Of a stretch of DNA of 64,000 bases, positions 14,089 through 51,716 are shown piece after piece; the first letter of the stretch is position 1, and every line of letters starts with the position of its first letter. Source of the stretch: Rickettsiales bacterium (GTDB taxonomy: Bacteria > Pseudomonadota > Alphaproteobacteria > Rickettsiales > JAIXRX01); NCBI GenBank assembly GCA_965247145.1, contig CBDFGH010000006.1, positions 168,778 to 232,777 on the forward strand, in the 5' to 3' direction. Both the position numbers and the translations under genes were made by a program. Below the pieces are notes generated by a model. The model had not been told where the DNA came from, made no database searches, and saw only the letters and a program-made list of their open reading frames with translations.

Positions 14089-14100
14089 GCCGCGCCTCCC

Positions 14101-15573
14101 CTAGCTTGCGAAGGCCAGCGCGGCCCGGTGCGCAACGGAGAGCAACGGCGCGGGCAGCAGCAGGAAGAACAAGGTCACGATCAGGCAGACCAACACCACG
14201 AAGCGCGAAAGCAACGGCAGCCCGACATCGAAGGCGGCACTCGGCTCATCGAAATACATGATCTTGATGATCTTCAGATAATAGAAGCAGGAAACCACGC
14301 TGGCCAGCACGCCGATGACGGCCAACCCGATCATGCCGCTCTGGATGGCGGCGAGGAAAACGTAGAACTTCCCGAAGAACCCGGCCAGCGGTGGAATGCC
14401 CGCCATGGAAAGCAGGAAGGACGCCATGGCGAAGGCCATCAGTGGATGGGTGCGCGAGAGCCCGGCGAGCTCGGCCGTGTGTTCCACCGGCTCCTCGCGG
14501 CGTGTGAGCAGCAGCACCACACCGAACGCGCCGATGTTGGAAGCGGCATAGATCACCAGATAGATGAACACCGAACTGATCGCCGCCTGCCCGCCCGCAG
14601 CCAAGCCCACCAGCATGAAACCGACATGGCCGATGGAGGAATAGGCCAGCAGGCGTTTCAGCTGCGTCTGCGTAATCGCGCCCCAGGCCCCGACCAGCAT
14701 CGACCCCACCGCCACCAGCACCACGATGCCCTGCCAGAAACCAGGCGCAGCGGCGAAGGGACCGGCAAGCAAGGTGGTCAGCGCCAGCACGGCGGCGATT
14801 TTCGGCGCGGCGGCAAACAGCGAGGTGACCACGGTGGGCGTGCCGCTATAGACATCCGGCGTCCACATATGGAAAGGCACGGCGGAGATTTTGAAGAACA
14901 GACCGACCAGCACCAGCACGAGGCCGAGCAGGAAGGCGAGCTGTTCGGAAGGCACGGTGCCCTGCCCCGGCTTCAAGGCTTCGAGCAGATGCCCGACCGC
15001 GGCATAATCCACGCTGCCGGTGGTGCCGTAGATCAACGAAATGCCGAAGAGCATGAGGCAGGAAGACAGCGAGCCGAGCACGAAATATTTGATGCCCGCC
15101 TCGGAGGATTGCCCGTCATCGCGGCGGATGGCGGCAAGCACGTAGAGCGCCAGGCTTGAAAGCTCGAGCGACATATAGAGCATGAGGAAGCTGGATGCTG
15201 AAATCAGCAGCATCAGGCCCAGGGCGGAGAAGAGCGACAGCACCACGAATTCGTTCGGCGCATCCGGGTGTGAAAGCAGCCAGGGCCGCGCCTGCATCAG
15301 CACCAGCGCGCTGGAAAGCAGCAGCAGGGCCTTGCCATATTGGGTGAAGTCGGAGAGATGCAGCAAACCGTGGAAGGGCGAAGTGTTCACGGGCGTCACC
15401 AGGCTGCACACGCCCGCCGCATAAAGCAGCACCAGCACGGCCAGGGCATGCACCGTATTCTTGCGCGCACCGAAAGCCACGCCCATCAGCAGCACCAAGC
15501 CCGAAAGCGCCAGCAGCATTTCGGGCGCGATGGCGCGCAGATCCAACCAATCGAATATCAAAGCATTGCCCAT
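14101..15573 (-). CDS. nuoN: NADH-quinone oxidoreductase subunit N
   Basis: Polytopic antiporter-like subunit and last nuo gene. ATG 15573 follows a GGGGGG-type SD and sits 1 nt after the nuoM stop; the ORF-track start is 15591. Confidence 0.93.
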   Translation of the reverse strand: MGNALIFDWLDLRAIAPEMLLALSGLVLLMGVAFGARKNTVHALAVLVLLYAAGVCSLVTPVNTSPFHGLLHLSDFTQYGKALLLLSSALVLMQARPWLLSHPDAPNEFVVLSLFSALGLMLLISASSFLMLYMSLELSSLALYVLAAIRRDDGQSSEAGIKYFVLGSLSSCLMLFGISLIYGTTGSVDYAAVGHLLEALKPGQGTVPSEQLAFLLGLVLVLVGLFFKISAVPFHMWTPDVYSGTPTVVTSLFAAAPKIAAVLALTTLLAGPFAAAPGFWQGIVVLVAVGSMLVGAWGAITQTQLKRLLAYSSIGHVGFMLVGLAAGGQAAISSVFIYLVIYAASNIGAFGVVLLLTRREEPVEHTAELAGLSRTHPLMAFAMASFLLSMAGIPPLAGFFGKFYVFLAAIQSGMIGLAVIGVLASVVSCFYYLKIIKIMYFDEPSAAFDVGLPLLSRFVVLVCLIVTLFFLLLPAPLLSVAHRAALAFAS

Positions 15574-15574
15574 A

Positions 15575-17065
15575 TTATTCCCCCCGCCCATGCGGCGGAA
15601 TCAGGTGATGCACCGGCTCAAGCAGGCTCTGCACGGCGGGCGCGATGCCGTCGAAAACCGGTTTCGGATAGATGCCGAGCGCCAGCGTGAGCAGCACCAG
15701 CGGCACGAAGATCAGCATCTCGCGACGGTTCACATCCACCATCGCCTTCAAATCCACCCGCACCAATTCGCCGAACACCACGCGGCGATAGAGCCACAAA
15801 GCGTAAGCCGCGCCCAGCACCATACCGGTGGCGATCAGCAATGCCACGGTGGTGTTTGCCTGAAAGGTTCCGGCGATCACCAGGAATTCGCCCACGAAGC
15901 CGCTGGTGCCGGGCAGGCCCGCGGAGGCCATGGTAAAGAACAGAAAGAGCACCGCATATTTCGGCATCACGCTCACCAGCCCGCCATAGCGCACGATTTC
16001 GCGGGTGTGCAGGCGGTCATAGACCACGCCGACGCAGAGGAAGAGCGCGCCGGAAACCAGCCCGTGGCTGATCATCTGAATCACCGCGCCTTCGACACCC
16101 TGCTGGCTGAAGGAGAAAATACCGGCGGTGACGAAACCCATATGCGCCACGGAAGAATAGGCGATCAGCTTCTTCATGTCCTCCTGCACCAGTGCAATCA
16201 AGGAGGTGACGATGACGGCGACGACGCTGAGCGCGAAGACCAGCCAGGCCAGATCGATCGAGGCTTGCGGCAGCATGGGCAGGCTGAAACGCAGGAAACC
16301 GTATGCGCCCATCTTCAACAGAATCCCCGCCAGAATCACCGAACCGGCGGTGGGCGCCTGCACGTGCGCATCCGGCAGCCAGGTATGGAACGGCCACATC
16401 GGCACCTTCACCGCGAAGGAAGCGAACAGGCCGAACCAGAGCAGGCGCTGAATATGCAGCGGCAGACTGGGCGCGCGTTCGGTGATGGTCGGAATGTCGG
16501 TCGTGCCGAAGGCCATGTAGAAATACAGCACGACGATCAGCAGCAACACAGAACCGGCGAGCGTATAGAGGAAGAATTTATAGGAGGCATAAACGCGATT
16601 ATCCCCGCCCCAGATGCCGATGATGAGGAACATCGGGATCAGCATGCCTTCGAAGAACAGATAGAACAGCACCATATCCAGCGAGCAGAAGACGCCGATG
16701 ACCATGGCTTCCAGCGCCAGGAAGGCGATCATGTATTCGCGCACGCGCTTCTGCACGGAGGTCCAGCTGCAGAGGATGCAGATCGGCATCAGAAGCGTGG
16801 TGAGCAGAATTAGGAACAGCGCCAGCCCGTCGATCCCCAGATGGTAGCGGATGGCTTCGCCGCCGAACCATGCGTGGTTCTCCAGGAACTGGTAACCCGC
16901 TGTGCCATTGTCGAACCCGCTCCACATCAACAGCGAGGCGGCGAAGGTGACGAGCGTGGTGCCGAGCGCGATCCAGCGCGCGGCACAATCATTGCGGCCG
17001 AAAAGCATGATGAGCGCGATGCCGAGGACCGGCAAGGCGAGCAAGGTGGAGAGCAGATACGGCAT
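15575..17065 (-). CDS. nuoM: NADH-quinone oxidoreductase subunit M
   Basis: Antiporter-like subunit starting MPYLLSTLLALPVLG (TAATG overlap with the nuoL stop; alternative ATG 17071). The ORF-track extension to 17329 overlaps nuoL. Confidence 0.93.
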   Translation of the reverse strand: MPYLLSTLLALPVLGIALIMLFGRNDCAARWIALGTTLVTFAASLLMWSGFDNGTAGYQFLENHAWFGGEAIRYHLGIDGLALFLILLTTLLMPICILCSWTSVQKRVREYMIAFLALEAMVIGVFCSLDMVLFYLFFEGMLIPMFLIIGIWGGDNRVYASYKFFLYTLAGSVLLLIVVLYFYMAFGTTDIPTITERAPSLPLHIQRLLWFGLFASFAVKVPMWPFHTWLPDAHVQAPTAGSVILAGILLKMGAYGFLRFSLPMLPQASIDLAWLVFALSVVAVIVTSLIALVQEDMKKLIAYSSVAHMGFVTAGIFSFSQQGVEGAVIQMISHGLVSGALFLCVGVVYDRLHTREIVRYGGLVSVMPKYAVLFLFFTMASAGLPGTSGFVGEFLVIAGTFQANTTVALLIATGMVLGAAYALWLYRRVVFGELVRVDLKAMVDVNRREMLIFVPLVLLTLALGIYPKPVFDGIAPAVQSLLEPVHHLIPPHGRGE

Positions 17066-19119
17066 TACCATGGCATGCCTCCGGTCGCGCGCATCACGAC
17101 GAAGAAGGTGATCAACAACACGACCCCGCTGAGCATGACGAATGCGTAATGATAGATGTACCCGCTTTGCAGGCGGCTGGTGATGCCCGCCAGGCGCACT
17201 TGCGTCCAGACCAGCCCGTTCGGGCCGAGGCCGTCCACCACCCGCATATCCAGGAAGCGCCACAGGAAACGGCCCAATGCTTTGGCGGGGCGCACGAAAA
17301 GGAAATCGTAGAGCTCGTCGAAATACCATTTGTTCAGAAAGAAACGATAGAGATGCGGGAAGGTGGCAGCCACTTTGCCCGGCAGATCGGTGCGCTTCAC
17401 ATAGAAGATATAGGCCAGCCCGATGCCCAGCAGCGCGAGAATCAGCGCGGCGTATTTCACCAGCAGGGGCGCATGGTGGGCGTGTTCGATGGCGTTGTGA
17501 TCTTCCAGGGTATGAATCGCGCCGTTCCAGAAAGCCAGATCCGGCGCGGCCATGCCCAGGTGCTCGCCCGCCGCCCCGGCGAACAACGCGCCCAAAGCCA
17601 GCACCACCAGCGGCAACAGCATGATGGCGGGCGATTCGTGAGCCTTATGGCTGTCATGCGCATCATGAGCGTGCGCATGGTCGCAATGAGCGCCATGGAC
17701 GTGATGATGCACAGGTGCAGTGGTTTCCACTTTGTGGTGTCCTGTAGCATCCGCGCGCGAGGTACCGTGGAAGGTCATGAACATCAGGCGGCTGGAATAG
17801 AAGGCGGTGAGGAAAGCGGCGGCCAGACCCATGACGAAGGCATACATATGCGCGGGTTGGTGCTCGGCGGCGTAGGCCGCTTCGATGATCAGATCCTTGG
17901 AATAATAGCCTGCAAAACCGACGCCCGCCGCGCCGATGCCGGCCAAAGCCAACGTGCCGATCCACATATAGGCGTAGGTCCAGGGCATTGCATGCCGCAC
18001 GCCGCCCATGCGGCGCATATCCTGCTCATGATGCAGACCGTGAATCACCGAACCCGCGCCGAGGAAGAGCAGCGCTTTGAAGAAAGCATGCGTCATCAAA
18101 TGGAAAATACCCGCGCTGTAGGCCGAGATACCGCAGGCGAAGAACATGTAGCCCAGCTGCGAGCAGGTGGAATAGGCGATGACGCGTTTGATGTCGTTTT
18201 GCACCAGGCCCACGGTGGCCGCGAAAATGGCGGTGGTCGCGCCGACGATGGTGACCACGGTTAAGGCCGTGGGCGAGAGTTCGAAGAGCGGCGAGCAGCG
18301 CGCGACCAGGAACACGCCCGCCGTCACCATGGTCGCCGCATGGATAAGCGCAGAGACCGGGGTCGGGCCTTCCATCGCGTCCGGCAGCCAGGTGTGCAGG
18401 CCGATCTGGGCGGATTTGCCGCAGGCGCCGATGAAGAGCAGCAGGCAGATCACCGTCATCGCATGCCAATCATGACCGAGGAAATGCATCTGCGCATTCG
18501 CCAGCTCCGGCGCGCGGGCGAAGATTTCGGAGAATTGCAGGCTGCCGAACAGCACGAAGATGGCGAAGATGCTGAGGGCGAAACCGATGTCGCCCACGCG
18601 ATTCACCAGGAAGGCTTTCATCGCCGCCTTGTTCGCTTCGGGCTTTTTGTACCAGAAACCGATCAGCAGGTAAGACGCGAGCCCCACCCCTTCCCAGCCG
18701 AGAAACACCTGCACGAAATTATCCGCCGTCACCAGCATCAGCATGAAGAAGGTGAAGAGGGAGAGATACGCCATGAAGCGCTGGCGGTGCGGGTCTTCGT
18801 GCATGTATCCGATGGAATAGAGATGCACGACGGCGGAAACGCTCGTCACCACCACCAGCATCACGGCGGTCAAGGCATCGACATGCGCGCCGAAGGAGGC
18901 GTGGAAATTGCCGGAGGCGATCCATTCGAACCAGCTTTCGTGGATGAGATTCTGGTCGATCGCGACTTGCTTGAAGGTGATGGCGGCGAGAATGGCGGTG
19001 AGCACCAGCAGACCGGAGGTAAGCAACTCAACCGTGCGCGCACCCAGCACGCGGCAGAACAGGCCGCCCACCAGGGCGCCGAATAACGGAAGGAGAACGA
19101 CGGCGGAAGCGAGGCCCAT
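17065..19119 (-). CDS. nuoL: NADH-quinone oxidoreductase subunit L
   Basis: 684-aa antiporter-like subunit with a long C-terminal extension, in canonical position between nuoK and nuoM. Confidence 0.95.
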   Translation of the reverse strand: MGLASAVVLLPLFGALVGGLFCRVLGARTVELLTSGLLVLTAILAAITFKQVAIDQNLIHESWFEWIASGNFHASFGAHVDALTAVMLVVVTSVSAVVHLYSIGYMHEDPHRQRFMAYLSLFTFFMLMLVTADNFVQVFLGWEGVGLASYLLIGFWYKKPEANKAAMKAFLVNRVGDIGFALSIFAIFVLFGSLQFSEIFARAPELANAQMHFLGHDWHAMTVICLLLFIGACGKSAQIGLHTWLPDAMEGPTPVSALIHAATMVTAGVFLVARCSPLFELSPTALTVVTIVGATTAIFAATVGLVQNDIKRVIAYSTCSQLGYMFFACGISAYSAGIFHLMTHAFFKALLFLGAGSVIHGLHHEQDMRRMGGVRHAMPWTYAYMWIGTLALAGIGAAGVGFAGYYSKDLIIEAAYAAEHQPAHMYAFVMGLAAAFLTAFYSSRLMFMTFHGTSRADATGHHKVETTAPVHHHVHGAHCDHAHAHDAHDSHKAHESPAIMLLPLVVLALGALFAGAAGEHLGMAAPDLAFWNGAIHTLEDHNAIEHAHHAPLLVKYAALILALLGIGLAYIFYVKRTDLPGKVAATFPHLYRFFLNKWYFDELYDFLFVRPAKALGRFLWRFLDMRVVDGLGPNGLVWTQVRLAGITSRLQSGYIYHYAFVMLSGVVLLITFFVVMRATGGMPW

Positions 19120-19122
19120 GAA

Positions 19123-19455
19123 CTATCCGTGCAATTGATTGATGTCTTCGACCGCGATGGTGCCGCGGTTGCGATAGAAAGTAACGAGAATGGCGAGCCC
19201 GATGGCGGCTTCGGCGGCGGCGACCGTCAGCACGAAGACGGTGAAGACCTGCCCCGTGAGATCATGCAGCATTGTGGAGAAGGCCACGAAATTGATGTTC
19301 ACCGAAAGCAGCATCAATTCCACCGAAAGCAGGATGGTGATGATGCTCTTGCGGTTGATGAACATGCCGCAGACGCCGATGACGAAGAGAATACCCGACA
19401 AGATCAGGTAATGCAGAATGCCGACGGAGCCGAAGAAGGGTTGCATGGAAAGCAT
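19123..19455 (-). CDS. nuoK: NADH-quinone oxidoreductase subunit K
   Basis: ~100-aa 3-TM protein with [13 protein letters not shown]...[20 protein letters not shown]. Confidence 0.95.
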
Positions 19456-19456
19456 G

Positions 19457-20080
19457 TTATGCCCCTTCCCCGGATTGCACTTGGACTATGCGCATCGCAT
19501 CCGACTTTTTGCGGTTGATCTGGCGCGAAATATTCTGGCGGCGCACATCCTTGCCATGGCGCAGGGTGAGCACGATGGCCCCGACCATGGCGACCAGCAA
19601 GATCAGCCCGGCCACCTGGAAGGGCAGCAGGAAATGGGTGTAGAGCACCTGGCCCACGGCCTGGGTATTGGTGGTAGTGGCGGCGGAAACCGTGGTGGTC
19701 GCGGCGCTCATCGCGCCTTCGTAGCCGGGCAGCTGATTCGAGGCGCGGAAGATCAGCACCAATTCGCCCAACAGAACCACCCCGATGATCGCGCCGATGC
19801 CCGCATAGCGCAAAAAGCCCTGGCGCAGTTCCGCGACATTGATATTCAGCATCATGACGACGAAGATGAACAATACCGCCACCGCGCCGACATAAACGAT
19901 CACTAAAGTCATGGCGATATATTCCGCCCCGAGCAGCAGCATGAGGGCGGCGGCATTGAAGAAACCGAGAATGAGGAAGAACACGCTGAGCACGGGGTTC
20001 CGCGCGGTGATGACGAGCAGACCCGACACCACGGTGAGCGCGGCGAAGAAGTAGAAGAGGAGTGTGGTGATATCCAGCAC
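19457..20080 (-). CDS. nuoJ: NADH-quinone oxidoreductase subunit J
   Basis: 207 aa starting [30 protein letters not shown], as is typical of NuoJ. Confidence 0.93.
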
Positions 20081-20152
20081 AGGCGGCTCAGTTTGGTTCG
20101 ATGGGTGAGGTCATAGTGGGTTTTGAATCACGCGTCCAGAATTTGAAGTATC

Positions 20153-20485
20153 TTACGATAAGACTTCACTCTGTTTCTTTTTCGATTGGCGAATAAGGCA
20201 CCATAGGCCGAATGCAACGAGCAAAACAATCACCGCCATATATTGCCAGAGTGGCAAAAAGATCATGATAAGGCCACTGGTGGATCGCAAATGGCTGGGC
20301 GAAAATTCCGAAAGATAAATGAGTACCGACCCCGCAGCCATGAGCGCTTGCGCGATGAGTGCCATTTTCTTATCCCTGTCTCGCAAACAGCCGACAATGA
20401 TCAGCCAAGCATATTGTGGACCAGCAGCCCACGCAGCCATCGTCAAGCTCATCACCGTCGCATCAGGGGTTAACCAAGCAGACAC
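20153..20485 (-). CDS. hypothetical membrane protein inserted between nuoI and nuoJ
   Basis: 110 aa with 3-4 hydrophobic segments. AT-richer than neighbours, same strand as nuo, with ~70-nt gaps on both sides. Confidence 0.55.
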   Translation of the reverse strand: MSAWLTPDATVMSLTMAAWAAGPQYAWLIIVGCLRDRDKKMALIAQALMAAGSVLIYLSEFSPSHLRSTSGLIMIFLPLWQYMAVIVLLVAFGLWCLIRQSKKKQSEVLS

Positions 20486-20552
20486 TATGCATATGTAGAG
20501 CAGACAGATAATGATAGAAATTCAAAGGGATGAATTTTTAAACATAACAAGC

Positions 20553-21044
20553 CTACCGGTAAGCCGCATCCGCGCTCAAATTCGCGGCGATCGCCGCTTC
20601 CCATTGCGCGCCATTCTCCAGCAATTTCGTTTTATTATAAAGCAGTTCTTCGCGCGTTTCGGTGCTGAACTCGAAGTTCGGGCCTTGCACGATGGCATCC
20701 ACCGGGCAGGCTTCTTGACAGAAACCGCAATAGATGCATTTCACCATGTCGATGTCGTAGCGCGTGGTGCGGCGGCTGCCATCCCCGCGCGATTCGGCTT
20801 CGATGGTGATGGCCTGCGCCGGGCAGATCGCCTCGCAGAGTTTGCACGCGATGCAGCGTTCTTCCCCGTTCGCATAACGGCGCAGCGCATGCTCGCCACG
20901 GAAGCGCGGGGAGATCGGGCCTTTTTCGTAGGGGTAGTTCAGCGTCACCTTCTTCTTGAAGAAGTATTTCAGCGTGATCCACAAACCCTGCACGAGTTCG
21001 ATCAGCAAGAAGGAGCGGAAGGATTGGGCGATCATGGTAGGCAT
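20553..21044 (-). CDS. nuoI: NADH-quinone oxidoreductase subunit I
   Basis: Two 4Fe-4S motifs, [12 protein letters not shown] and [12 protein letters not shown]; 163 aa from ATG 21044. The ORF-track extension to 21146 translates a hairpin repeat (AGIH...IPAFAGMT). Confidence 0.95.
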
Positions 21045-21065
21045 CCTCGGGTTGGCTTTTGGTTT

Positions 21066-21150
21066 CGTCATCCCCGCAAAGGCAGGGATCCACGATCTTA
21101 CTTCCTCGAAGAAAGGAATTTCGTGGATGCCCGCCTGCGCGGGCATGACG
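21066..21150. repeat. nested GTCATCC...GCATGAC palindromic element (nuoH/nuoI junction)
   Basis: cgtcatccccgc-aaag-gcagggatccacga...ttcct-cgaagaa-aggaa...tcgtggatgcccgc-ctgc-gcgggcatgacg: nested inverted repeats spanning 85 bp. Confidence 0.8.
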
Positions 21151-21155
21151 GTGTA

Positions 21156-22175
<1,020 letters not shown>

Positions 22176-22198
22176 CGTGTCGGTCCTTTTCTAATTCG

Positions 22199-22240
22199 TC
22201 ATTCCCCGAATTTTCCAAAGGAAAATTATAGGGGAATCCT
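22199..22240. repeat. hairpin element at the nuoG/nuoH junction
   Basis: cgtcattcccc-g-aattttcc-aaa-ggaaaatt-ata-ggggaat: nested stem with the same CGTCAT lead-in as the other hairpin elements. Confidence 0.65.
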
Positions 22241-24304
22241 TTACGCGGCTTGCGCTTCCTGACCCACCTGCCCCATGCGGCTGCATTCGGCCATGGTTTT
22301 GCTGACGCGGCTGATGGGGTCGGTGCGGTAGAAATCTTCGATCGGGTAGCTGAAGGGCGCGCTGTTGGCGGGCAAGGCGTTGGCCAGGCGCGAGGCTTTC
22401 CATTCCGCGGGGGTCACGCGCTCATAGGCGGCACCCGGCAGGGATTTCAGCATGCCCGCGCGCACTTCTTCGTAGGTCTCGTAGGGCAGGGTTTTGCCCA
22501 GAGCCTCGCTCAAAGCGCGCAGTACTTTCCAGCTTTCCCGCGCTTCGCCACGCGGGCCCACGGCACGCACGGCCTGTTGCAGGCGGCCTTCGGTGTTCAT
22601 GTAGCTGCCATGCTGTTCGGTGTAGGCGGCGGAAGGCAGAATCACATCCGCCCGCGAAGCACCCGCATCCCCATGGTGGCCTTGATAGACCACGAAAGTA
22701 TGGGCGCCGATTTCGTGTGCGGAAATTTCATCCGCGCCCAGCAGATACAATATATCGAGCGCATCCGTACGGCTGGCGGCGAGCATATCCGCCACGTTCA
22801 GGCCTTGCGCGGCAGGCACGAAACCGAGTTCCAGCGCGCCGACGCGGCTGGCGGCTTTGTGCAGCAGGTTGAAGCCGTTCCAATCCGCCTTCACCACGCC
22901 GGAAGCTTCGGCAATCGCCATCGCCATCGCCAGAATCGCCGCACCGTCTTCGCGCGCCACGGCACCTGCGCCCAGGATGATCATCGGGCGTTGCGCTTTT
23001 TGCAGCGCGGCGAATACTTCGCCTTTGGCGGAATGCAGATCGTTCAAAATGCTGGGGGATTCGCCCAGCCAGGTGACTGGATAGGTCAGCGCGGTCTCCG
23101 GCCCGATGGCGAAGATGTTTTTCAAGCTGCCATGCAGATAGCCCTTGCGGATACGGCTGTTCAGCACCGCCGCCTCATGGCGCGGATTGGTGCCGATGAG
23201 CAGGATCGCGTCCGCTTCCTCGATACCGGCGAGGCCGCTATTGAAGCGCCAGGAACCGCGATTGGCCGCGTCCAGAGCAGCGCCGTCCTGGCGGCAGTCG
23301 ATGTTGCCGGAACCTAAGGAAGCGAAAAGCTGGCGGGCGAGGAAGAGCGATTCCATCTCCACCAGATCGCCCGCGATCACGCCCATGCGGTTGCCTGCGC
23401 TGGCTTTCGCTTTTTCGGCGATGGCGGCGAAGGCTTCGGCCCAGCTGGCGGGCTGCAGGCGGCCATCGCGGCGCACATAGGGGCGATCCAGGCGCTGGTA
23501 GCGCAGGCCGTCGCAGGCGTGGCGGGTTTTATCGGAAATCCATTCCTCGTTCACCGCTTCGTTGATGCGCGGCAGCACGCGCAGCACCGCATCCATCCGC
23601 GCATCCACGCGGATGTTGCTGCCCAGGGCGTCATGCACGTCGATCGATTCGGTTTTCTTCAATTCCCACGGCCGCGCCACGAAGGCATAGGGCCGCGAGG
23701 TGAGCGCGCCCACGGGGCAGAGATCGACGAGATTCCCCGCCAGCTCGGACTGGATGGCTTTTTCCAGTGTGGTGATTTCGGTGTGTTCGCCGCGGCCCAA
23801 GGTGCCGATGGCGGGCACGCCCGCGACATCTTCGGCGAAGCGCACGCAGCGGGTGCAATGGATGCAGCGCGTCATCTGCGTCTTGATGACCGGGCCCATG
23901 AATTTGTCTTCGACCGCGCGCTTTTCCTCGTGGTAGCGGCTGGTGCCGCGACCAAAGGCCATGGATTGATCCTGCAGATCGCACTCGCCACCCTGATCGC
24001 AGATCGGGCAGTCCAGCGGATGGTTGGCCAGCAGGAATTCCATCACGCCTTCGCGCGCCTTCTTCACCATCGGCGTGTTGGTTTTCACCACCATGTTTTC
24101 GGCCACCGGCAATGCACAGGAGGCTTGCGGCTTCGGCGGGCCGGGCGAAACTTCGACCAGGCACATGCGGCAATTGCCCGCGATGGCGAGTTTTTCGTGA
24201 TAGCAGAAGCGCGGAATTTCCACGCCCGCTTTTTCGCAGGCCTGAATGACCGTGGAGCCTGCCGGAACTTCGATCTCGGTGCCGTCGATGGTGAGTTTGG
24301 TCAT
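22241..24304 (-). CDS. nuoG: NADH-quinone oxidoreductase subunit G
   Basis: N-terminal Fe-S cysteine clusters (CYHEKLAIAGNCRMCLVEV; HPLDCPICDQGGECDLQD; CIHCTRCVRF); 687 aa. Confidence 0.96.
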   Translation of the reverse strand: MTKLTIDGTEIEVPAGSTVIQACEKAGVEIPRFCYHEKLAIAGNCRMCLVEVSPGPPKPQASCALPVAENMVVKTNTPMVKKAREGVMEFLLANHPLDCPICDQGGECDLQDQSMAFGRGTSRYHEEKRAVEDKFMGPVIKTQMTRCIHCTRCVRFAEDVAGVPAIGTLGRGEHTEITTLEKAIQSELAGNLVDLCPVGALTSRPYAFVARPWELKKTESIDVHDALGSNIRVDARMDAVLRVLPRINEAVNEEWISDKTRHACDGLRYQRLDRPYVRRDGRLQPASWAEAFAAIAEKAKASAGNRMGVIAGDLVEMESLFLARQLFASLGSGNIDCRQDGAALDAANRGSWRFNSGLAGIEEADAILLIGTNPRHEAAVLNSRIRKGYLHGSLKNIFAIGPETALTYPVTWLGESPSILNDLHSAKGEVFAALQKAQRPMIILGAGAVAREDGAAILAMAMAIAEASGVVKADWNGFNLLHKAASRVGALELGFVPAAQGLNVADMLAASRTDALDILYLLGADEISAHEIGAHTFVVYQGHHGDAGASRADVILPSAAYTEQHGSYMNTEGRLQQAVRAVGPRGEARESWKVLRALSEALGKTLPYETYEEVRAGMLKSLPGAAYERVTPAEWKASRLANALPANSAPFSYPIEDFYRTDPISRVSKTMAECSRMGQVGQEAQAA

Positions 24305-24311
24305 GGTCTGC

Positions 24312-24518
24312 TCAGTGAAAGAATGTTTCTTTAGTTAGTCCGGATTGCCGCACGATGGAAGCGAAGGTTCCTTGCGGTGTGCCGGGCTTAGGGTGTGGCA
24401 CGATCACCGTGCGTTCGCCGCGTACGTATTTGGCGTGACTGCCGCGCTTGGATTTGAAGATGAATCCCTCTCGTTCCAGCACCGCGATGATCTCCCGTGA
24501 GCTTAAAAGCTTAGCCAT
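24312..24518 (-). CDS. hicA: HicA-family mRNA interferase toxin
   Basis: 68 aa; LEREGFIFKSKRGSHAKYVR...VIVPHP...GTFASIVRQSGL matches the HicA/YcfA pattern (GSH motif). Overlaps hicB by 8 nt, and its stop lies 7 nt before the nuoG start. Confidence 0.85.
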   Translation of the reverse strand: MAKLLSSREIIAVLEREGFIFKSKRGSHAKYVRGERTVIVPHPKPGTPQGTFASIVRQSGLTKETFFH

Positions 24519-24720
24519 GAATCGTGCTTTCGCCGATCATCGCCAGTTCTATCGGCACAAAATCTGCCGGATCGTGATCTTCAAAATACAGTTCCACCGC
24601 TTCGCGAATGTTGCGCACCGCTTCGTCGATCGAATCACCGAAAGTGCTCACATCCACGTTCAGGCATTGCGCCACGTAATGTTCGCCTTCCTTGGTCACG
24701 ACATATTGAATGCTGCGCAT
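24511..24720 (-). CDS. hicB: HicB-like antitoxin (short form, no DNA-binding domain)
   Basis: 69 aa; YVVTKEGEHYVAQCLNVDVSTFGDSIDEAVRNIREAVELYFE matches the HicB/UPF0150 N-terminal fold pattern. Sits immediately upstream of hicA. Confidence 0.8.
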   Translation of the reverse strand: MRSIQYVVTKEGEHYVAQCLNVDVSTFGDSIDEAVRNIREAVELYFEDHDPADFVPIELAMIGESTIHG

Positions 24721-24735
24721 GGCTCGCGTTCCTCG

Positions 24736-25410
24736 TTACTTCAGTTCTTTTTGAATGTTGTTCTTCGCACAGGGGAATTTGATCACCAAGGCGTTGATGA
24801 TTTCCTGGGCGGCGGGGGCTTTGGTGGGGCGGTCGGGGCGGGCTTTGCGCCATTCCTGAATGGCCGTCATCACCTCGGCATCGGTCATCTGCAGTTTGGG
24901 TTTCATGTCCGCGCCGCAGAAAAGCGTTTTGCCTTCCAGGGCTTTTTCCTTTTTGGCTTTCACTTCGAAGAAAGCGAGCGCCATATCGAGCGTGCCGGCG
25001 ATGTAGGCATGGCAGAGATTCTGGTCGGGTTCGGCTTTCGCATCGCACTTTTCCAGCAATTCGCTGAAGCGCATGCCCAAGGAACACATTTCCGATTTGG
25101 TGGCGATGAGATGCTGCAGGAGGATGTAGGAAGCCGGGGTTTCGGGGTCTTTGGCAGCGGCAAAGAGACCTTTGGGACCGTCCACCGCATCCATCACCGC
25201 GTCCAGCGTTTTGATGTCTTTTTCCTCGCAGCCTTCATGCTTGCTGTGCAGCAGCCAATAGCGCTCCGAACCGCCCAGGGCATACGCCCGGCATATCGGG
25301 CTGCCCGCCGTGCAGATGGGTTTCAGCTCGCCCGCATTGGTGAAGGCGCTGGCCGCGATGGGCAGCAGCGAAGCCAGCCCGAGGATAATGGTAGAAATCA
25401 AAATACGCAT
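24736..25410 (-). CDS. periplasmic protein with Rap1a/Tai4-like domain(s)
   Basis: Signal peptide MRILISTIILGLASLLPIAASA. The C-terminal half LCHAYIAGTLD...LFCGAD...TDAEV...W...RPD...PAAQEIINALVIKFPC fits the Rap1a/Tai4 Cys pattern, and the N-terminal half is a degenerate copy. Confidence 0.6.
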   Translation of the reverse strand: MRILISTIILGLASLLPIAASAFTNAGELKPICTAGSPICRAYALGGSERYWLLHSKHEGCEEKDIKTLDAVMDAVDGPKGLFAAAKDPETPASYILLQHLIATKSEMCSLGMRFSELLEKCDAKAEPDQNLCHAYIAGTLDMALAFFEVKAKKEKALEGKTLFCGADMKPKLQMTDAEVMTAIQEWRKARPDRPTKAPAAQEIINALVIKFPCAKNNIQKELK

Positions 25411-25425
25411 AAGACTCTCGTTTTT

Positions 25426-25451
25426 GTCATCCCAGCGAATGCTGGGATGAC
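25426..25451. repeat. perfect GTCATCC...GGATGAC hairpin (nuoF / next-ORF junction)
   Basis: gtcatcccagc-gaat-gctgggatgac: 11-bp perfect stem with a 4-nt loop. Confidence 0.9.
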
Positions 25452-25457
25452 GTTACA

Positions 25458-26741
25458 TTAAGCAGCCACCTGTGCTTGTTTGAATGCCGCGATGCGCGCT
25501 TCGACCATGGGGCGGAAGTGGCGCATGAGGCCTTGGATGGGCCAGGCGGCCGCATCGCCCAAAGCGCAGATGGTGTGGCCTTCGATGCGGGTGGAGAGAT
25601 CGAGCAGATGGTCGATCTCCTCGACTTCCGCATTACCCGCAGCCAGGCGCTCCATCATCCGCCACATCCAGCCCGTACCCTCGCGGCACGGCGTGCATTG
25701 GCCGCAGGATTCGTGCATGTAGAATTTGGAGAGGCGCGCGATGGCTTTGATGAGGTCGGTGGATTTATCCATTACGATGACCGCCGCCGTGCCGAGGCCG
25801 GAGCGTTGCTCGCGCAAGCTATCGAAATCCATCAGCACCGTGTCGCAGATGTCTTTCGGCAGCAGCGGCACGGAAGAGCCGCCGGGAATGATGGCCAGCA
25901 GATTATCCCACCCGCCGCGCACGCCACCGGCATGTTTCTCGATAAGTTCTTTGAGCGGAATGCCCATTTCCTCTTCGACGTTGCAGGGGTTGTTCACATG
26001 CCCGCTGATGCAGAACACCTTGGTGCCGGTATTGTTGGGCCGCCCCAACGCCGCAAACAAGGCCGGGCCGCGGCGCAGAATGGTGGGTACGACGGCGATG
26101 GATTCGACGTTGTTCACCGTGGTCGGGCAGCCCCACACGCCCATGGCTGCCGGGAAAGGCGGTTTCAGGCGCGGCTTGCCCATTTTGCCTTCCAGCGATT
26201 CGATCAGCGCGGTTTCTTCCCCGCAGATATAGGCGCCCGCGCCGCGATGGACGTAGATCTCGAAATCATAACCCGAACCGCAAGCGTTCTTGCCCAGGAA
26301 ACCCGCCGCGCGCGCTTCGTCGATCGCGGCTTCCAGCCGGTCCGCTTCCTCGCGGAATTCGCCGCGGATGTAGATGTAGGCCGCCACCGCGCGGATGGCG
26401 AAGCCGCCGATGAGGCAACCTTCCAGCAATTTGTGCGGCTCGTGGCGCATCATGTCGCGGTCTTTGCAGGTGCCGGGCTCGCCCTCATCCGCATTGACCA
26501 CCAGATAGCTGGGGCGGCCATCGCTTTGCTTCGGCATGAAAGACCATTTCATGCCCGTGGAGAACCCTGCCCCGCCGCGCCCGCGCAAGCCGGATGCCTT
26601 CACTTCCTCGATGATCGCTTCCTGGCCTTTGGCCAGAATCGCTTTGGTATTGTCCCAATCGCCGCGCGCTTGCGCCGCGTTCAAACGCCAGTCGTGGAAA
26701 CCGTAGAGGTTCTGGAAAATACGGTCTTCGTTCTTCAACAT
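25458..26741 (-). CDS. nuoF: NADH-quinone oxidoreductase subunit F
   Basis: [20 protein letters not shown] motif and [12 protein letters not shown] 4Fe-4S motif; 427 aa from ATG 26741 ([14 protein letters not shown]). Confidence 0.96.
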
Positions 26742-26742
26742 G

Positions 26743-27615
26743 TCATTTCGCCTTATTCGCAGGAATGGTGGGCGTGGGAGCGGCTTTACCCGAAAAAAGT
26801 GCGCGTAGCGGCGCATCCAATATCAGTTTGGAAGGCAGGGCCACATCCACCACCACCGGCTCGTCCTTTTTGCCGATGCTGAGCATCTCGATGTCCAACC
26901 CTTTGGGTGTATAATAATAACCAAGGCAATTCGGGCATTCACCCATTTTGAAGGGGCGCGCGAAGCCCGGCGCGTCGATCGGGCGGGCCTGAATTTTCTG
27001 CTGGCGCAAGATTTCTTTGTTGATCGCTTCGTCCTGATTCGCGCCGAGCAGATCGATAAGATTCACCGCTTCTCCCGTGGCGATATTCAGCAACAAACCA
27101 CGGTGAGACAATACCGGCTCTTCGCTACCGTCCCGGTCGTAATAGCGATAGGTCATGCCGATATAGTCGCCTTTCAGGAAAGTCACCGTTCCTTCGAGGG
27201 TACTGACAATGGCGGCACTGGCCAGAAAATCGCGGGGTCTGCCTGCCTGTTTTTGACTATAATTCGGCGGGCATACCCCTTCCTCAACGCCTGCCTGGGT
27301 AAAAGCTTTCAACGCGTCGTTCAGCGCTTCGGCGTGCGGCAAGGCGTTTGCGTTGGGTGGCTCGGCGGGCTCGGCAAGGTGACGGTCGGTCGCCGCTTTG
27401 GCGGCAGCGGCGGTAACGAAGCGGGGATAGGCGGTATCAATTGCGCAGAAACATGCAGGTATCGCCCCTTTCTTGGCCATACATGCGGGATCGGCCAAGA
27501 CGGCGCGCGCTTTCACCCGCTCTTCCAGATAGGCGGGCCACGCCAGCACTGCGGGCTCTGCGGCCAGCGCGGGCAACGGCAGCAGCAAAATCAGAAGCAG
27601 AAGTGCATGGCGCAT
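26743..27615 (-). CDS. hypothetical periplasmic protein inserted between nuoE and nuoF
   Basis: 290 aa from ATG 27615 with signal peptide [19 protein letters not shown]. Stop lies 1 nt before the nuoF ATG and start 8 nt after the nuoE stop. No confident family. Confidence 0.65.
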
Positions 27616-27623
27616 GGAAACTC

Positions 27624-41074: not shown

Positions 41075-42862
41075 ATGACGACGAGCTATCAGATCGAAGA
41101 TCATTATTACGACGTGGTCGTGGTCGGGGCCGGGGGCGCGGGTTTGCGCGCCACTTTCGGCATGGCGGAAGCAGGTTTGAGCACCGCCTGCATCACCAAG
41201 GTTTTCCCGACACGGTCGCATACCGTCGCGGCACAAGGCGGCATCTCGGCCGCGCTCGGCAATATGAGCGAAGATGACTGGCGCTGGCACTTCTACGACA
41301 CGATCAAAGGTTCGGATTGGCTGGGCGATCAAGACGCCATCGAATATATGTGCAAAAACGCCGCCGCCGCGGTGATCGAGCTCGAACATTACGGCGTGCC
41401 TTTCAGCCGCACCGAGGAGGGCCGCATCTATCAGCGCCCCTTCGGCGGCATGACCACGCAATTCGGCGAAGGCCCGCCCGCGCTGCGCACCTGTGCAGCC
41501 GCCGACCGTACCGGTCACGCCATCCTGCATACGCTCTATACCCAGGCTTTGCGCCACCGCGCGCAATTCTTCATCGAATATTTCGCGCTCGATCTCATCA
41601 TGGATGACGGCGTGTGCCGCGGCGTCATCGCCTGGAATCTGGATGACGGCACGATCCACCGCTTCCACGCGCACCAAGTGGTCATCGCCACCGGCGGTTA
41701 CGGCCGCGCCTATTTCTCCTGCACCTCCGCCCACACCTGCACGGGCGATGGCAATGCCATGGTCACCCGCGCGGGGCTACCATTGCAGGACATGGAATTC
41801 GTGCAATTCCACCCCACCGGCGTCTACGGTTCCGGCTGCCTCATCACCGAAGGCGCGCGCGGCGAAGGGGGTTACCTAGTGAACTCCGAAGGCGAGCGCT
41901 TCATGGAGCGTTACGCCCCGCACGCGAAAGATCTCGCCAGCCGCGACGTGGTTTCGCGCGCGATGACGGTGGAAATCCGCGAAGGGCGCGGGGTCGGTCC
42001 GAAGAAGGATCACATCCATCTGCACCTCAATCATCTCGACCCCGAAATCCTGCATCAGCGCCTGCCCGGCATTTCCGAAACCGCGAAGATCTTCGCGGGT
42101 GTGGACGTGACGAAAGCGCCGATTCCCGTGCTGCCCACCGTGCATTACAATATGGGCGGCATCCCCACCAATTATCACGGCGAAGTGCTCACCGTCGGGG
42201 CCGATGGCCCGGATACGGTGGTGCCCGGCCTGATGGCCATCGGCGAGGCGGCCTGCGTTTCGGTACATGGCGCGAACCGCCTGGGCTCGAACTCGCTGCT
42301 CGATCTCGTCGTCTTCGGCCGCGCCGCCGCGCACCGCGCGAAGGAACTGGTGAAGCCCGGCCAGCCGCACAAGGTGCTGAGCCAGGATCTCACCGACAAG
42401 GCCCTCGCCCGTCTGGATAAAATCCGCCACGCCAAGGGTTCCTTGCGCACCAGCGAAATCCGCCGCGCGATGCAGGATACGATGCAGACCCATGCCGCCG
42501 TCTTCCGCCAGGAAGACACGTTGGTCGAGGGTGTGAACAAAATGTCGGACATCTATCAGTCCTTCGAAGATGTGCAGATTTCCGACCGCAGCATGATCTT
42601 CAATTCCGATCTGGTCGAAGCGCTGGAACTCGACAATCTGCGCGGCCAAGCGCTGATCACCGTCGCCAGCGCGCAAAACCGCAAGGAAAGCCGCGGCGCC
42701 CACGCCCGCGAAGATTTCCAGGACCGCGACGACAAGGAATGGCTGAAACACACCGCCGCCTGGCTGGACGAGAACGGCAAAGTCGGTTTCGATTACCGCC
42801 CCGTGCATCTGAACACCATGGGCGGCGTCGAATCCGTGCCGCTGAAAAAGCGGGTTTATTGA
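41075..42862 (+). CDS. sdhA: succinate dehydrogenase flavoprotein subunit
   Basis: FAD motif [13 protein letters not shown], the covalent-FAD His region [11 protein letters not shown], and HPTG; 595 aa. Confidence 0.97.
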
Positions 42863-42896
42863 TGCTAGCCGCTTCCACGCACTTTCCCTTTTTCTC

Positions 42897-42970
42897 CGTC
42901 ATCCTGCGCGCAGTCGCAGGATCTCTGAGCGCTTCCGGCACGCGATCCTGCGACTGCGCGCAGGATGACG
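42897..42970. repeat. 74-bp palindromic element of the GTCATCC family
   Basis: Perfect 27-bp arms cgtcatcctgcgcgcagtcgcaggatc / gatcctgcgactgcgcgcaggatgacg around a 20-nt spacer. Each arm can also fold on itself. Confidence 0.9.
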
Positions 42971-42975
42971 AAAAT

Positions 42976-43818
42976 ATGATTTATCGCCTGCCCATAAAAA
43001 ACATTTTCGCCAATAATATCCTCGTCGCCCTGTCCGCCTGCCTCCTGCTCGCCGCCTGCGCCGAGCCGGTCACCCGCACGCCTGGCATCTCCAGCCAGGA
43101 AATCGCCGCCGAAGCCAAAGTGCACGAAGATGCAGTCGCCGCCGCCAAGCGTCAGTCCGGCGGCAGCAAAACCAGCATCGACCGTAGCATCGCACAAAAT
43201 GGCCTGAATGCGGTTGCCGCGAAACTCCTTCCCGCCGCCGCGGCCTATTGCCAGCAATTTGATGGCCAATCCCCCTGCCCCTACACCTACCAACTCGACA
43301 AGGACGACGCGCCGCTGAACGCCTATGCGGACGGTTCGCAGATCGTGGTGGCGCCCGCCATGATCGCCTTTACCCAAAGCCCGGATGAACTCGGCGTGGT
43401 GCTCGGCCACGAACTCGCCCACAACATCCTCAAGCACCCCGCCAAAGCCCAGCAAAACGGCATGCTGGGGGGGCTGGCCGGAACCGCACTCGGCGCGGCC
43501 GCGCAGGCCTACGGCTACAATCTCGGCGATCTCGGCGGCATGGGGCAGCAACTGGCAGTCGGCCATTACAGCCAGGATTTCGAGCGGGACGCGGATTATC
43601 TCGGCATCTACATCACCTACGCCGCCGGTTACAACGTCGATGTCGCCCCCACTTTCTGGCAGCGCATGAGTGTGGCGGACCCGGACGGCATCTACAGCGC
43701 TTCCTCCCACCCCACCAACCCCGAGCGTGCCGTGCTTCTGCGCAAGGCCATTGCCGAAATCCGCGCCAAAGTCGCCGCCGGTCAGCCGCTGGTGCCCGAA
43801 TTGCGGAAGCAGAAATGA
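42976..43818 (+). CDS. M48-family zinc metallopeptidase, lipoprotein
   Basis: Lipobox LLLAA-C, HELAHN zinc motif, downstream FERDADYLG and SSHPTNPER; 280 aa from ATG 42976. Confidence 0.85.
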   Translation: MIYRLPIKNIFANNILVALSACLLLAACAEPVTRTPGISSQEIAAEAKVHEDAVAAAKRQSGGSKTSIDRSIAQNGLNAVAAKLLPAAAAYCQQFDGQSPCPYTYQLDKDDAPLNAYADGSQIVVAPAMIAFTQSPDELGVVLGHELAHNILKHPAKAQQNGMLGGLAGTALGAAAQAYGYNLGDLGGMGQQLAVGHYSQDFERDADYLGIYITYAAGYNVDVAPTFWQRMSVADPDGIYSASSHPTNPERAVLLRKAIAEIRAKVAAGQPLVPELRKQK

Positions 43819-44774
43819 TGCGCGCGCTGAATCTGCTCCCTTTCCTCGTGCTTGCCCTGGCTGCCTGCCAGCCTTCGCCCTTCGCCACGGAACGAACCGA
43901 CCGCGCGGAGCAATCCTATGTCGAGCCGCTAATCCGGGTTACGGATGCCGAAGGCAAGGAGATGATGCGTCCCGCCAAGGCAGACGACGCCAGCCAGGGT
44001 CTCTACCGCATCCAAAACGTCCGCACCCTGACGTTCCGAACACTGAGCGAATATGGCAACGATATGAAGCGCGACGTGTATCTATTGCAGGAAAAACAGA
44101 ATTTCCTCGCTGACGACGAGCGAGATGTCGCGTTCGGCACATCGAACATTGCGGTGACATTGTACCATCAATCTTCAACCAGCGCGACAGAGAGCGAACG
44201 CGTTTGGAGCCATCATTTCGCGGCGGATCGCAGCGATCTCATCGCTAATACGGGGATGCCGCTTGAAATCTATCGCCTGACCGTTTTCGGCTGCTGCGGC
44301 ACCCACGACAATTACCGCTATCTAGACGCGATGACCGGCAGGTTGCTGGGCGGGGGAGACAGTCCCCTGACGCCGGTCGATCTGATGGAACCGTCGGGTG
44401 CGACGATCCGGCGTTACATTTCCGTGGAATCCGATTACGCTGAGATAGAATATGCCCGCCCTTCCTGCCGGGCAGCCCTGGTCAGTCTGGCCGACGAGAC
44501 ACACATCTTGGCAACCGTGGCCTTGACCGCGCCCCAGACGATTCAATGCGCGAAAGAAGCATCCAGCTTCAAGGATTTCGGCAGCCGTAAGCTGGTGCAT
44601 TCCAGTGCCAAACGCGACCGCGCGACGGTGGTTCTTCCACTGGCCGAAGGCGGGCAAGGCCCCCGTCTGCCGTTCGATGCCAAAGGATTCCTGATGGATA
44701 AAATCAAACTTCCCGCCGGCTGGAAGGCCGCCCCTGCCCGACTGGATTGGCCGGGCGAGCATGCCGCTAAATAA
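43815..44774 (+). CDS. hypothetical lipoprotein (319 aa)
   Basis: ATGA overlap with the M48 stop. Signal/lipobox MMRALNLLPFLVLALAA-C. No family recognised. Confidence 0.65.
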   Translation: MMRALNLLPFLVLALAACQPSPFATERTDRAEQSYVEPLIRVTDAEGKEMMRPAKADDASQGLYRIQNVRTLTFRTLSEYGNDMKRDVYLLQEKQNFLADDERDVAFGTSNIAVTLYHQSSTSATESERVWSHHFAADRSDLIANTGMPLEIYRLTVFGCCGTHDNYRYLDAMTGRLLGGGDSPLTPVDLMEPSGATIRRYISVESDYAEIEYARPSCRAALVSLADETHILATVALTAPQTIQCAKEASSFKDFGSRKLVHSSAKRDRATVVLPLAEGGQGPRLPFDAKGFLMDKIKLPAGWKAAPARLDWPGEHAAK

Positions 44775-51714: not shown

Positions 51715-51716
51715 AC

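Follow-up and report, generated by a model that had tools for sequence, protein, structure and literature searches.

The nuo operon of a Rickettsiales bacterium carries a hicB-hicA toxin-antitoxin (TA) gene pair upstream of nuoG. The pair lies in a 64,000-nt stretch of DNA, termed here the window (assembly GCA_965247145.1, contig CBDFGH010000006.1); all features described below are on its minus strand unless stated otherwise. The pair is probably a selfish Class 2 HicBA cassette that has no promoter of its own and is expressed by read-through of the host operon together with translational coupling. By sequence relationships it belongs to one hicBA clade found in core operons of uncultured Alphaproteobacteria-like genomes. 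A more far-reaching proposal is offered tentatively: that this clade has specialised in essential energy-metabolism operons, foremost at the nuoF|nuoG junction but also in mdh-sucCD and at guaA, that it has given up transcriptional autonomy, and that nuoG is reinitiated from hicA. Modules of this type are known, and the recurrent operon-embedded lifestyle of one of their clades appears to be undescribed.

Identity and predicted folds of HicA and HicB

The hicA gene (24312-24518) encodes a 68-aa protein, a putative ribosome-independent RNase with the motif G26-S27-H28. It matches the Pfam family HicA_toxin (PF07927) with 53.3 bits, against a cut-off of 27, and covers all 58 positions of the profile (1-58); it also matches the solved structures 1WHZ (E 8.6e-8) and 4C26 (E 1.4e-5) at the sequence level. 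The G-S-H motif is retained and is invariant in an alignment of 30 homologues; within it, KRGSH aligns with GSH of Burkholderia pseudomallei HicA and with GGH of TTHA1913. The His of this motif, H28, is presumably the catalytic residue, in line with published mutagenesis. The AlphaFold2 (AF2) model has a predicted local distance difference test (pLDDT) score of 93.6 and an alpha-beta-beta-beta-alpha order (helix 7-16, strands 20-25, 28-33 and 36-41, helix 49-59). Foldseek superposes the model on 1WHZ with a template modelling (TM) score of 0.90 and a root mean square deviation (rmsd) of 1.3 A, and also finds 6G26_E, 5YRZ_B, 4P78_C and 6HPB_A. By profile, motif and predicted fold, the 68-aa open reading frame (ORF) is a HicA toxin.

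The hicB gene (24511-24720, ATG start) encodes a 69-aa antitoxin, which is identified from the ORF list, 638 homologues, the AF2 model and structural matches. The profile search that succeeded for HicA gives only sub-threshold scores for HicB, namely 17.3 bits for HicB_lk_antitox (PF15919; cut-off 27) and 18.1 for DUF7387 (cut-off 27.9), and NCBIfam has no match for it. The 638 homologues are each ~69 aa in length, and several are labelled 'HicB family antitoxin' by their sources. Residues Q18-C19-L20-N21, S25, F27-G28, N37, A41 and L44-Y45 are invariant in the family alignment (QCLN..S.FG...N...A..LY), and a search of the PDB with the family profile finds the HicB chains 9SVK_B (E=0.003), 6G1C and 6G1N. 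The AF2 model (pLDDT 93.9) is beta-beta-beta-alpha, with strands 6-11, 14-19 and 25-28 and a helix at 31-48; the final beta strand of the HicB fold is absent from this monomer model. Its best Foldseek matches are 2YZT, 3K6Q and the N-domain of B. pseudomallei HicB, 6G1C (rmsd 1.0 A over 46 residues, probability 1.00). Despite the sub-threshold Pfam score, the family profile and the model thus identify the 69-aa ORF as a HicB with a predicted partial RNase-H-like fold.

The HicB chain is fully accounted for by the HicB fold and a 20-aa tail. A DNA-binding domain of the ribbon-helix-helix (RHH), helix-turn-helix (HTH) or Phd type is found neither by Pfam nor in the model, as the initial annotation, made from the DNA sequence alone, had held. 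That annotation had put the missing domain in its title. The absence is real but ordinary, since it is a hallmark of the prevalent Class 2 hicBA modules, in which hicB comes first, HicB is 60-90 aa and without an identifiable DNA-binding domain, HicA is 60-85 aa, and the genes are close or overlapping (PMC10865869). With products of 69 and 68 aa, an 8-nt gene overlap and no DNA-binding domain, the window pair is a Class 2 module. Class 2 counts among the most prevalent classes, is experimentally untested, and its regulation is an open question (Gerdes 2024, mBio 15:e03293-23; PMC10865869).

The exact HicB and HicA proteins of the window occur on one contig only, and the next-best homologues are 57-70% identical. 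Of 80 metagenome loci, 58 have a HicA match immediately downstream of hicB, as do 10/10 of the intact pairs embedded in operons that are described below. No defence-system model of PADLOC matches the window pair.

Position and expression within the nuo operon

The gene order is nuoF, a Rap1a-like ORF, hicB, hicA and nuoG. The initial annotation gave the ORF coordinates, the 8-nt overlap, the 7-nt gap to nuoG, the GSH motif and the strand correctly. It also placed the pair between nuoF and nuoG; the junction is right, but the Rap1a-like ORF (24736-25410) was missed, so nuoF (25458-26741) is not adjacent. The nuoF gene was identified by its Pfam domains and tblastn alignments, and its ORF is open to 26816, with homologues aligning from the Met at 26741. 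The downstream core gene nuoG (22241-24304; 687 aa) was recognized by its Pfam domains. The Rap1a-like ORF encodes a secreted protein of 224 aa with a signal peptide (PF18602, E 7.7e-12) and ends 15 nt before hicB. The Rap1a domain defines a family of type VI secretion immunity proteins, here encoded within a complex I operon.

The 15-nt spacer between the Rap1a-like stop codon and the hicB ATG (24721-24735) holds the hicB Shine-Dalgarno (SD) sequence GAGGAA, 8 nt upstream of the ATG, and leaves no room there for a promoter. A consensus scan of the minus strand between 21000 and 32000 (11 kb), which non-canonical alphaproteobacterial promoters could escape, gave no sigma-70-like site. No terminator-like site was found on this strand from nuoF to nuoG, and the claim of the initial annotation that none separates the pair from nuoG is borne out. 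Its proposal that the pair depends on read-through from the nuo promoter has indirect but quite strong support in the 15-nt spacer, the lack of a sigma-70-like site in 11 kb and the tight gaps found in most of the clade. An inverted match of 21 nt between 24721-24741 and 19179-19199 was judged to be due to chance.

At the translational level, hicB and hicA overlap by 8 nt (ATGGCTAA, 24511-24518), a geometry that implies translational coupling and is found in most family members. The spacer from the hicA TGA (24312-24314) to the nuoG ATG (24304) is 7 nt in length (24305-24311). It is unstructured (fold dG -2.3 kcal/mol, z -0.16) and has no clear SD sequence, and in the relative on contig L178 (L-numbers denote contigs fetched for HicB homologues and relatives) nuoG starts 2 nt after the upstream stop codon. 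Thus initiation of nuoG probably relies on coupling to hicA translation, by reinitiation.

These features can be assembled into a scheme. The nuo promoter would transcribe hicBA within the polycistronic nuo mRNA, and hicB would be translated from its own SD sequence 15 nt past the Rap1a-like stop codon. Translation of hicA would be coupled to that of hicB via the overlap, and nuoG would be reinitiated 7 nt past the hicA stop. The partial RNase-H fold of HicB would bind HicA and mask its His-dependent RNase site. A stop in operon transcription or translation would, if HicB is the more rapidly degraded partner, set HicA free to cleave RNA and bring about growth arrest. Such a cassette would be a selfish hitch-hiker that obtains expression free of cost and is shielded by essential neighbours from sloppy deletion; purifying selection would keep it intact, with occasional losses in which the toxin goes first.

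The 47-nt spacer between nuoF and the Rap1a-like ORF is mostly occupied by an 11-bp hairpin, GTCATCCCAGC-ATTC-GCTGGGATGAC (25426-25451; dG -23.9 kcal/mol, z -4.6). It is not an intrinsic terminator because it has no U-tract, and it is not among the sites from the terminator-like scan. A second strong hairpin is present at nuoH|nuoI (~21055-21150; dG -56, z -6.6). The two hairpins share CGTCAT...ATGACG ends and the lack of a U-tract, the nuoH|nuoI hairpin being the longer. They may be palindromic repeat elements, or sites of mRNA processing or stability. A pattern search for the nuoF|rap1a hairpin as a repeated element of the repetitive extragenic palindromic (REP) type gave no further exact copy in the window.

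Related pairs at the same junction and in other core operons

The nearest homologues (57-70% identity) are also found from nuoF to nuoG, as intact pairs in six other lineages and as a decayed remnant (L001/L002) in an eighth. The same junction is therefore occupied in eight lineages whose NuoG is 56-83% identical to that of the window. Contig L170 (GCA_964532685.1) shows the simple order nuoF-hicB-hicA-nuoG. L083/L084 (GCA_964588995.1) reads nuoD-ORF-nuoE-nuoF-hicB-hicA-nuoG-nuoH, and L172-L174 reads nuoF-[97-aa ORF]-hicB-hicA. In L085/L086 the order is nuoE-[102-aa HicA-domain ORF, L085:1392-1700]-nuoF-hicB-hicA-nuoG, in L168/L169 (GCA_964643145.1) it is nuoE-[MNT (NTP_transf_2)/HepT TA pair, L168:2024-2686]-nuoF-hicB-hicA-nuoG-nuoH-nuoI, and in L177 it is nuoE-nuoF-hicB-hicA-[Methyltransf_21 gene, L177:3048-3971]-nuoG. 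The bracketed genes of L168, L085 and L177 are other selfish-type genes at neighbouring nuo junctions of hicBA carriers. In total, seven intact pairs of distinct sequence are situated downstream of nuoF; nuoG comes directly after hicA in five of them.

Three further loci are in other core operons: mdh-sucC-hicB-hicA-sucD (L171, 4001-4409), mdh-hicB-hicA-sucC (L088, 4001-4403) and guaA-hicB-hicA-hemD (L175/L176, L175:4001-4415). Their spacers are 6-8 nt upstream and, where measurable, 2-11 nt downstream, the downstream gap of L171 being uncalled. In eight of the ten intact pairs of the clade, 6-37 nt separate hicB from the stop codon of a co-directional gene, which is Rap1a-like, nuoF, mdh, sucC or guaA; the spacers of L083 and L172 are 81 and 134 nt. 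The next co-directional gene begins -1 to 18 nt after hicA, again in 8/10. The other embedded loci have an SD-like GAGG or AGGG 6-10 nt ahead of hicB, with the exception of L171, whose start is unclear. No conserved sequence beyond the SD was found upstream of hicB across the embedded loci. The other loci of the family (~80, nearly all from a metagenome scan) mostly have gaps of >100 nt or no co-directional neighbour.

The ten embedded pairs form one clade in a neighbour-joining (NJ) tree of concatenated HicB and HicA from 47 distinct loci (240 of 300 bootstrap replicates). Some more distant Class 2 pairs also lie between co-directional genes, with neighbour identities read from translations only: recA-hicBA-efp (L126:2932-5033) and a sugar ABC-transporter binding protein-hicBA-ATPase arrangement (L134:2-2371). 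Location within operons may be more widespread among hicBA modules that lack a DNA-binding domain.

Among the matches listed, the 80 other alphaproteobacterial species, whose NuoG is 57-62% identical, have neither hicA nor hicB within 7 kb of nuoG. The nuoF|nuoG junction of many Alphaproteobacteria holds other, non-TA ORFs, and the junction is a general hot spot for inserted ORFs.

Selection, composition and loss

The HicA ORFs are intact in all ten embedded pairs, with KGSH in nine (KGNH in L171) and VIVPHPK and GT..SI.RQSG in all. The ratio of non-synonymous to synonymous substitution rates (dN/dS) is 0.04-0.19 for both genes, as read from the pairs with unsaturated dS, most pairs being saturated. 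Accordingly, these hicBA pairs are maintained by purifying selection. They also look foreign and unstable. The guanine plus cytosine (GC) content of hicBA is 5-17 points under that of flanking DNA in 11/11 embedded loci. In the window it is 0.53 versus 0.59, and at third codon positions (GC3) 0.59-0.61 versus 0.77 for nuoF and nuoG.

Contig L178 (2.3 Mb; NuoG 75% identical) displays the order nuoF-rap1a-nuoG, with a 2-nt spacer between rap1a and nuoG and no hicBA. The Rap1a-like proteins of the window and L178 are 57% identical. The L178 version is ~15 aa longer at the C-terminus, and the hicBA insertion therefore seems to have replaced the tail of the window's Rap1a-like gene. In the closest relative, L001/L002 (NuoG 83%), the same junction has a hicB cut to 49 codons, whose product is 88% identical to the window HicB, and ~135 nt of unrelated sequence in place of hicA. 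This remnant evidently represents toxin-first decay, as expected of a TA pair. The initial annotation had suggested that the pair might act as an addiction module that stabilises this operon segment. This role is contradicted by the relatives: nearer relatives without the pair, such as L178, keep the operon intact, and the pair itself decays, as in L001, which lost hicA and retains a truncated hicB.

A stretch of ~35 nt upstream of hicB is similar in the window and L001, which suggests that the two hicB genes stem from one insertion predating their split (nuoG dS 0.83). Between the same two loci, dS is 2.2 for hicB, a value that rests on 49 codons, versus 0.83 for nuoG. An allele swap is suggested at the nuoF-hicB junction of L001. 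There, two paralogous ORFs (191 and 175 aa, with no Pfam family) stand in place of the Rap1a-like gene (L001:105-1204), and the second has an ATGA overlap with a duplicated nuoG start.

Direct duplications flank the cassette in three loci. L083 has 34 nt of the nuoG 5' end, 91% identical (2946-2979/3405-3438), L001 has 25 nt of the nuoG start, 100% identical (1195-1219/1573-1597), and L172 has 83 nt of the nuoF 3' end, 88% identical (450-532/1377-1459). A mini-ORF formed by the leftover nuoG start is seen in L083 and L001; its end lies 14-15 nt ahead of hicB. Because the duplications differ in length, they are evidently separate insertion or recombination scars and not transposase target duplications. 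They suggest recombination between close relatives, and they could mediate precise excision of the cassette.

In the NuoF tree, five carriers are monophyletic and the window groups with the non-carrier L004 (NuoF 84% identical). Co-transfer of the cassette with its nuo flanks, by homologous recombination between the lineage of the window and the other carrier lineages, was considered and finds no support at this evolutionary depth: NuoG over its first 60 or 150 aa, and NuoF over its last 60 or 150 aa, resemble the carriers no more closely than they do 80 non-bearing genomes. The recurrence at nuoF|nuoG may be due to an ancient insertion with many losses or to repeated insertion at a preferred site. 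Two vehicles of mobility were rejected. An integron gene cassette would have an attC site, i.e., a ~60-140 nt imperfect palindrome downstream of the ORF, for which there is no room (hicA and nuoG are 7 nt apart in the window, and the downstream gap is -1 to 18 nt in 8/10 intact embedded loci); in addition, the junction is unstructured. For carriage by phage, a scan of viral contigs gave distant relatives only (best 56%, most 31-33%).

Comparison with known systems

The window pair shares with the published Class 2 hicBA modules the hicB-hicA order, a HicB made up solely of a partial RNase-H fold, and overlapping genes that suggest coupling; it differs in its setting, as no modules inside core operons are described there (PMC10865869). 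The context of the window pair suggests an answer to the question of Class 2 regulation, namely read-through of the host operon. The canonical autoregulated HicAB systems of Escherichia coli K-12 (6HPB), B. pseudomallei (6G26), Yersinia pestis (HicA3B3, 4P78) and Streptococcus pneumoniae (HicBA, 5YRZ) have the same HicA fold and GSH/His motif, and the same N-terminal HicB fold, which is predicted to contact HicA. In these systems an operator in the module's own promoter is bound by an HTH or RHH domain at the C-terminus of HicB (PMC10865869). In contrast, the window HicB, at 69 aa, is without this domain, and the stretch ahead of its gene offers no intergenic region for an operator. The stand-alone short HicB-like proteins of Thermus thermophilus, TTHA1756 (2YZT) and TTHA1013 (1WV8), are comparable in length (67-71 aa) and among the top matches of the HicB model, but are only 19-27% identical in sequence to it.

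Expression of TA genes linked to an adjacent host operon has precedents in mazEF, which is upstream of the sigB operon in Staphylococcus aureus and downstream of relA in E. coli. These mazEF modules have their own autoregulated promoter, a DNA-binding antitoxin and a position at the operon edge. The window pair, unlike these, lies midway along an essential operon of 14 genes, with spacers of 15 and 7 nt and no DNA-binding domain. As to the junction, unidentified reading frames (URFs) on the same strand are interspersed in the nuo/nqo clusters of Paracoccus denitrificans and Rhodobacter capsulatus. Accessory ORFs at nuoF|nuoG in other Alphaproteobacteria, e.g., a ~230-aa protein in Mesorhizobium and pentapeptide-repeat proteins, resemble hicBA in their location; none of those in the 80 species listed is a TA pair. 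Full-text literature searches turned up no report of hicAB in Rickettsiales and none of a TA pair at the nuoF|nuoG junction.

Weighing the alternatives

Several points speak against a promoterless, selfish cassette. An internal promoter in the 3' part of the Rap1a-like ORF, or in nuoF, sucC and other genes elsewhere, could escape the consensus scan, and the nuoF/Rap1a-like hairpin could cause attenuation or processing of the transcript. For every Class 2 module, toxicity, neutralisation and differential stability are putative. The clade is weakly supported by HicB alone or HicA alone, the NJ trees resting on ~140 columns, and the host taxonomy of these loci is known only roughly. Pure selfishness also leaves unexplained the exact recurrence at nuoF|nuoG across 56-62% NuoG identity, and the co-transfer test with the ends of the flanking genes was negative. 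This raises the question of whether the position is functional and not accidental, with hicBA a domesticated regulator that tunes the expression of complex I or energy metabolism. For example, HicA might cleave polycistronic nuo/suc mRNA, or arrest growth when expression of the respiratory operon drops. Occupation of one junction in eight lineages (NuoG 56-83% identical), the presence of the remaining clade members in energy or core metabolism operons, purifying selection on both genes and the apparent coupling of nuoG translation to hicA agree with such a role; so does the negative co-transfer test, by which the fidelity of the junction does not come from simple hitch-hiking on homologous flanks. 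Domestication is nevertheless unlikely. The nearest relatives, L178 and L004, have an otherwise identical operon without the pair, which is also missing, among the matches listed, from 80 other alphaproteobacterial species; it has decayed in L001; its GC deficit and flanking duplications are typical of inserted DNA; and neighbouring nuo junctions hold other genes of a selfish or defence type (MNT/HepT in L168, the HicA-domain ORF in L085).

Another alternative is a phage-defence device. Phage shut-off of a strongly and constitutively transcribed operon would lead to the disappearance of labile HicB, and HicA would then kill or arrest the infected cell. Genomic contexts have led to the proposal of an anti-phage role for HicA domains (PMC10865869), a design that has no promoter and depends on host transcription would suit a sensor of shut-off, and L168 has the HepT/MNT pair at the next nuo junction. 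This abortive-infection role is quite unlikely, as PADLOC has no matching model, the neighbours are nuo genes and not a defence island, the viral contigs yield no close clade members (best 56%, most 31-33%), and there is no experimental support for Class 2 modules. That the module is autonomous, with a cryptic promoter in the 3' end of the upstream ORF and an unlinked regulator, so that the embedding is merely physical, is very unlikely. Consensus scans can miss non-canonical alphaproteobacterial promoters, the upstream spacers of L083 (81 nt) and L172 (134 nt) could hold one, and ~35 nt upstream of hicB are similar in the window and L001. However, six loci have an upstream spacer of 6-21 nt after four different core genes (nuoF, mdh, sucC and guaA), no upstream sequence is conserved across loci beyond the SD, and the minus strand shows no sigma-70-like match in 11 kb. 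Least credible is an inert relic, i.e., a decaying, inactive insertion retained since precise deletion is rare. The decay of L001 at the same site and the GC content below that of host genes would fit a relic, but both ORFs are full length with the invariant family residues and GSH kept, dN/dS is far under 1, the models are of high confidence, and intact pairs are found in ten diverged loci. The promoterless, operon-riding cassette thus remains the preferred interpretation.

Biological implications

The window locus and its relatives provide a concrete and testable answer to how some Class 2 modules, without regulation of their own, could be expressed by riding host operons. If the clade is indeed specialised for life in operons, this would be the first concrete answer on Class 2 HicBA regulation. 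Toxin release would then be a direct read-out of respiratory-operon expression, and a real physiological link might exist between complex I expression and growth arrest. A toxin gene here forms a link in the coupled translation of an essential respiratory gene, which prompts the question of how cells cope with toxin made at the rate of the operon. TA cassettes can persist in core operons across deep divergence, and insertion scars and toxin-first decay are visible in nature. For annotation there is a warning: ORFs of ~200 nt between nuo genes of uncultured Rickettsiales-like Alphaproteobacteria may be active toxins rather than 'URFs'.

Other features of the window

The nuo operon (14100-32200) holds six non-nuo ORFs besides hicBA. 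Three lie between nuoC and nuoD (30193-30921, 29862-30254 and 29425-30006), a secreted ORF lies between nuoE and nuoF (within 26743-27828), and a 110-aa membrane ORF lies between nuoI and nuoJ (20153-20485); the sixth is the Rap1a-like ORF. Most of the six have a GC content below that of the nuo genes, and the relative L178 has a similar set. Just past the 5' end of the operon is a low-GC island (32550-33450; 0.37-0.45 versus 0.59 overall), which contains a DUF4145 ORF (32678-33373). A second core operon is also interrupted: on the plus strand, sdhA (41075-42862) and sdhB (44823-45623) are split by inserted genes, an M48-peptidase ORF (42739-43818) and a 319-aa ORF with no assigned family (43815-44774).

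Behind a VirB4/TrbE gene (53429-55828) come two VirB6/TrbL-like genes, at 51717-53468 and at 47978-49648; they are separated by a 689-aa ORF (49645-51714) that belongs to no Pfam family. This cluster (47978-55828) we take to resemble the Rickettsiales-type (rvh) type IV secretion cluster. The NuoG relatives of the window include metagenome-assembled genomes labelled Rickettsiales. On the basis of these VirB4 and VirB6 genes and of these labels, the host is probably an uncultured Rickettsiales-like alphaproteobacterium.

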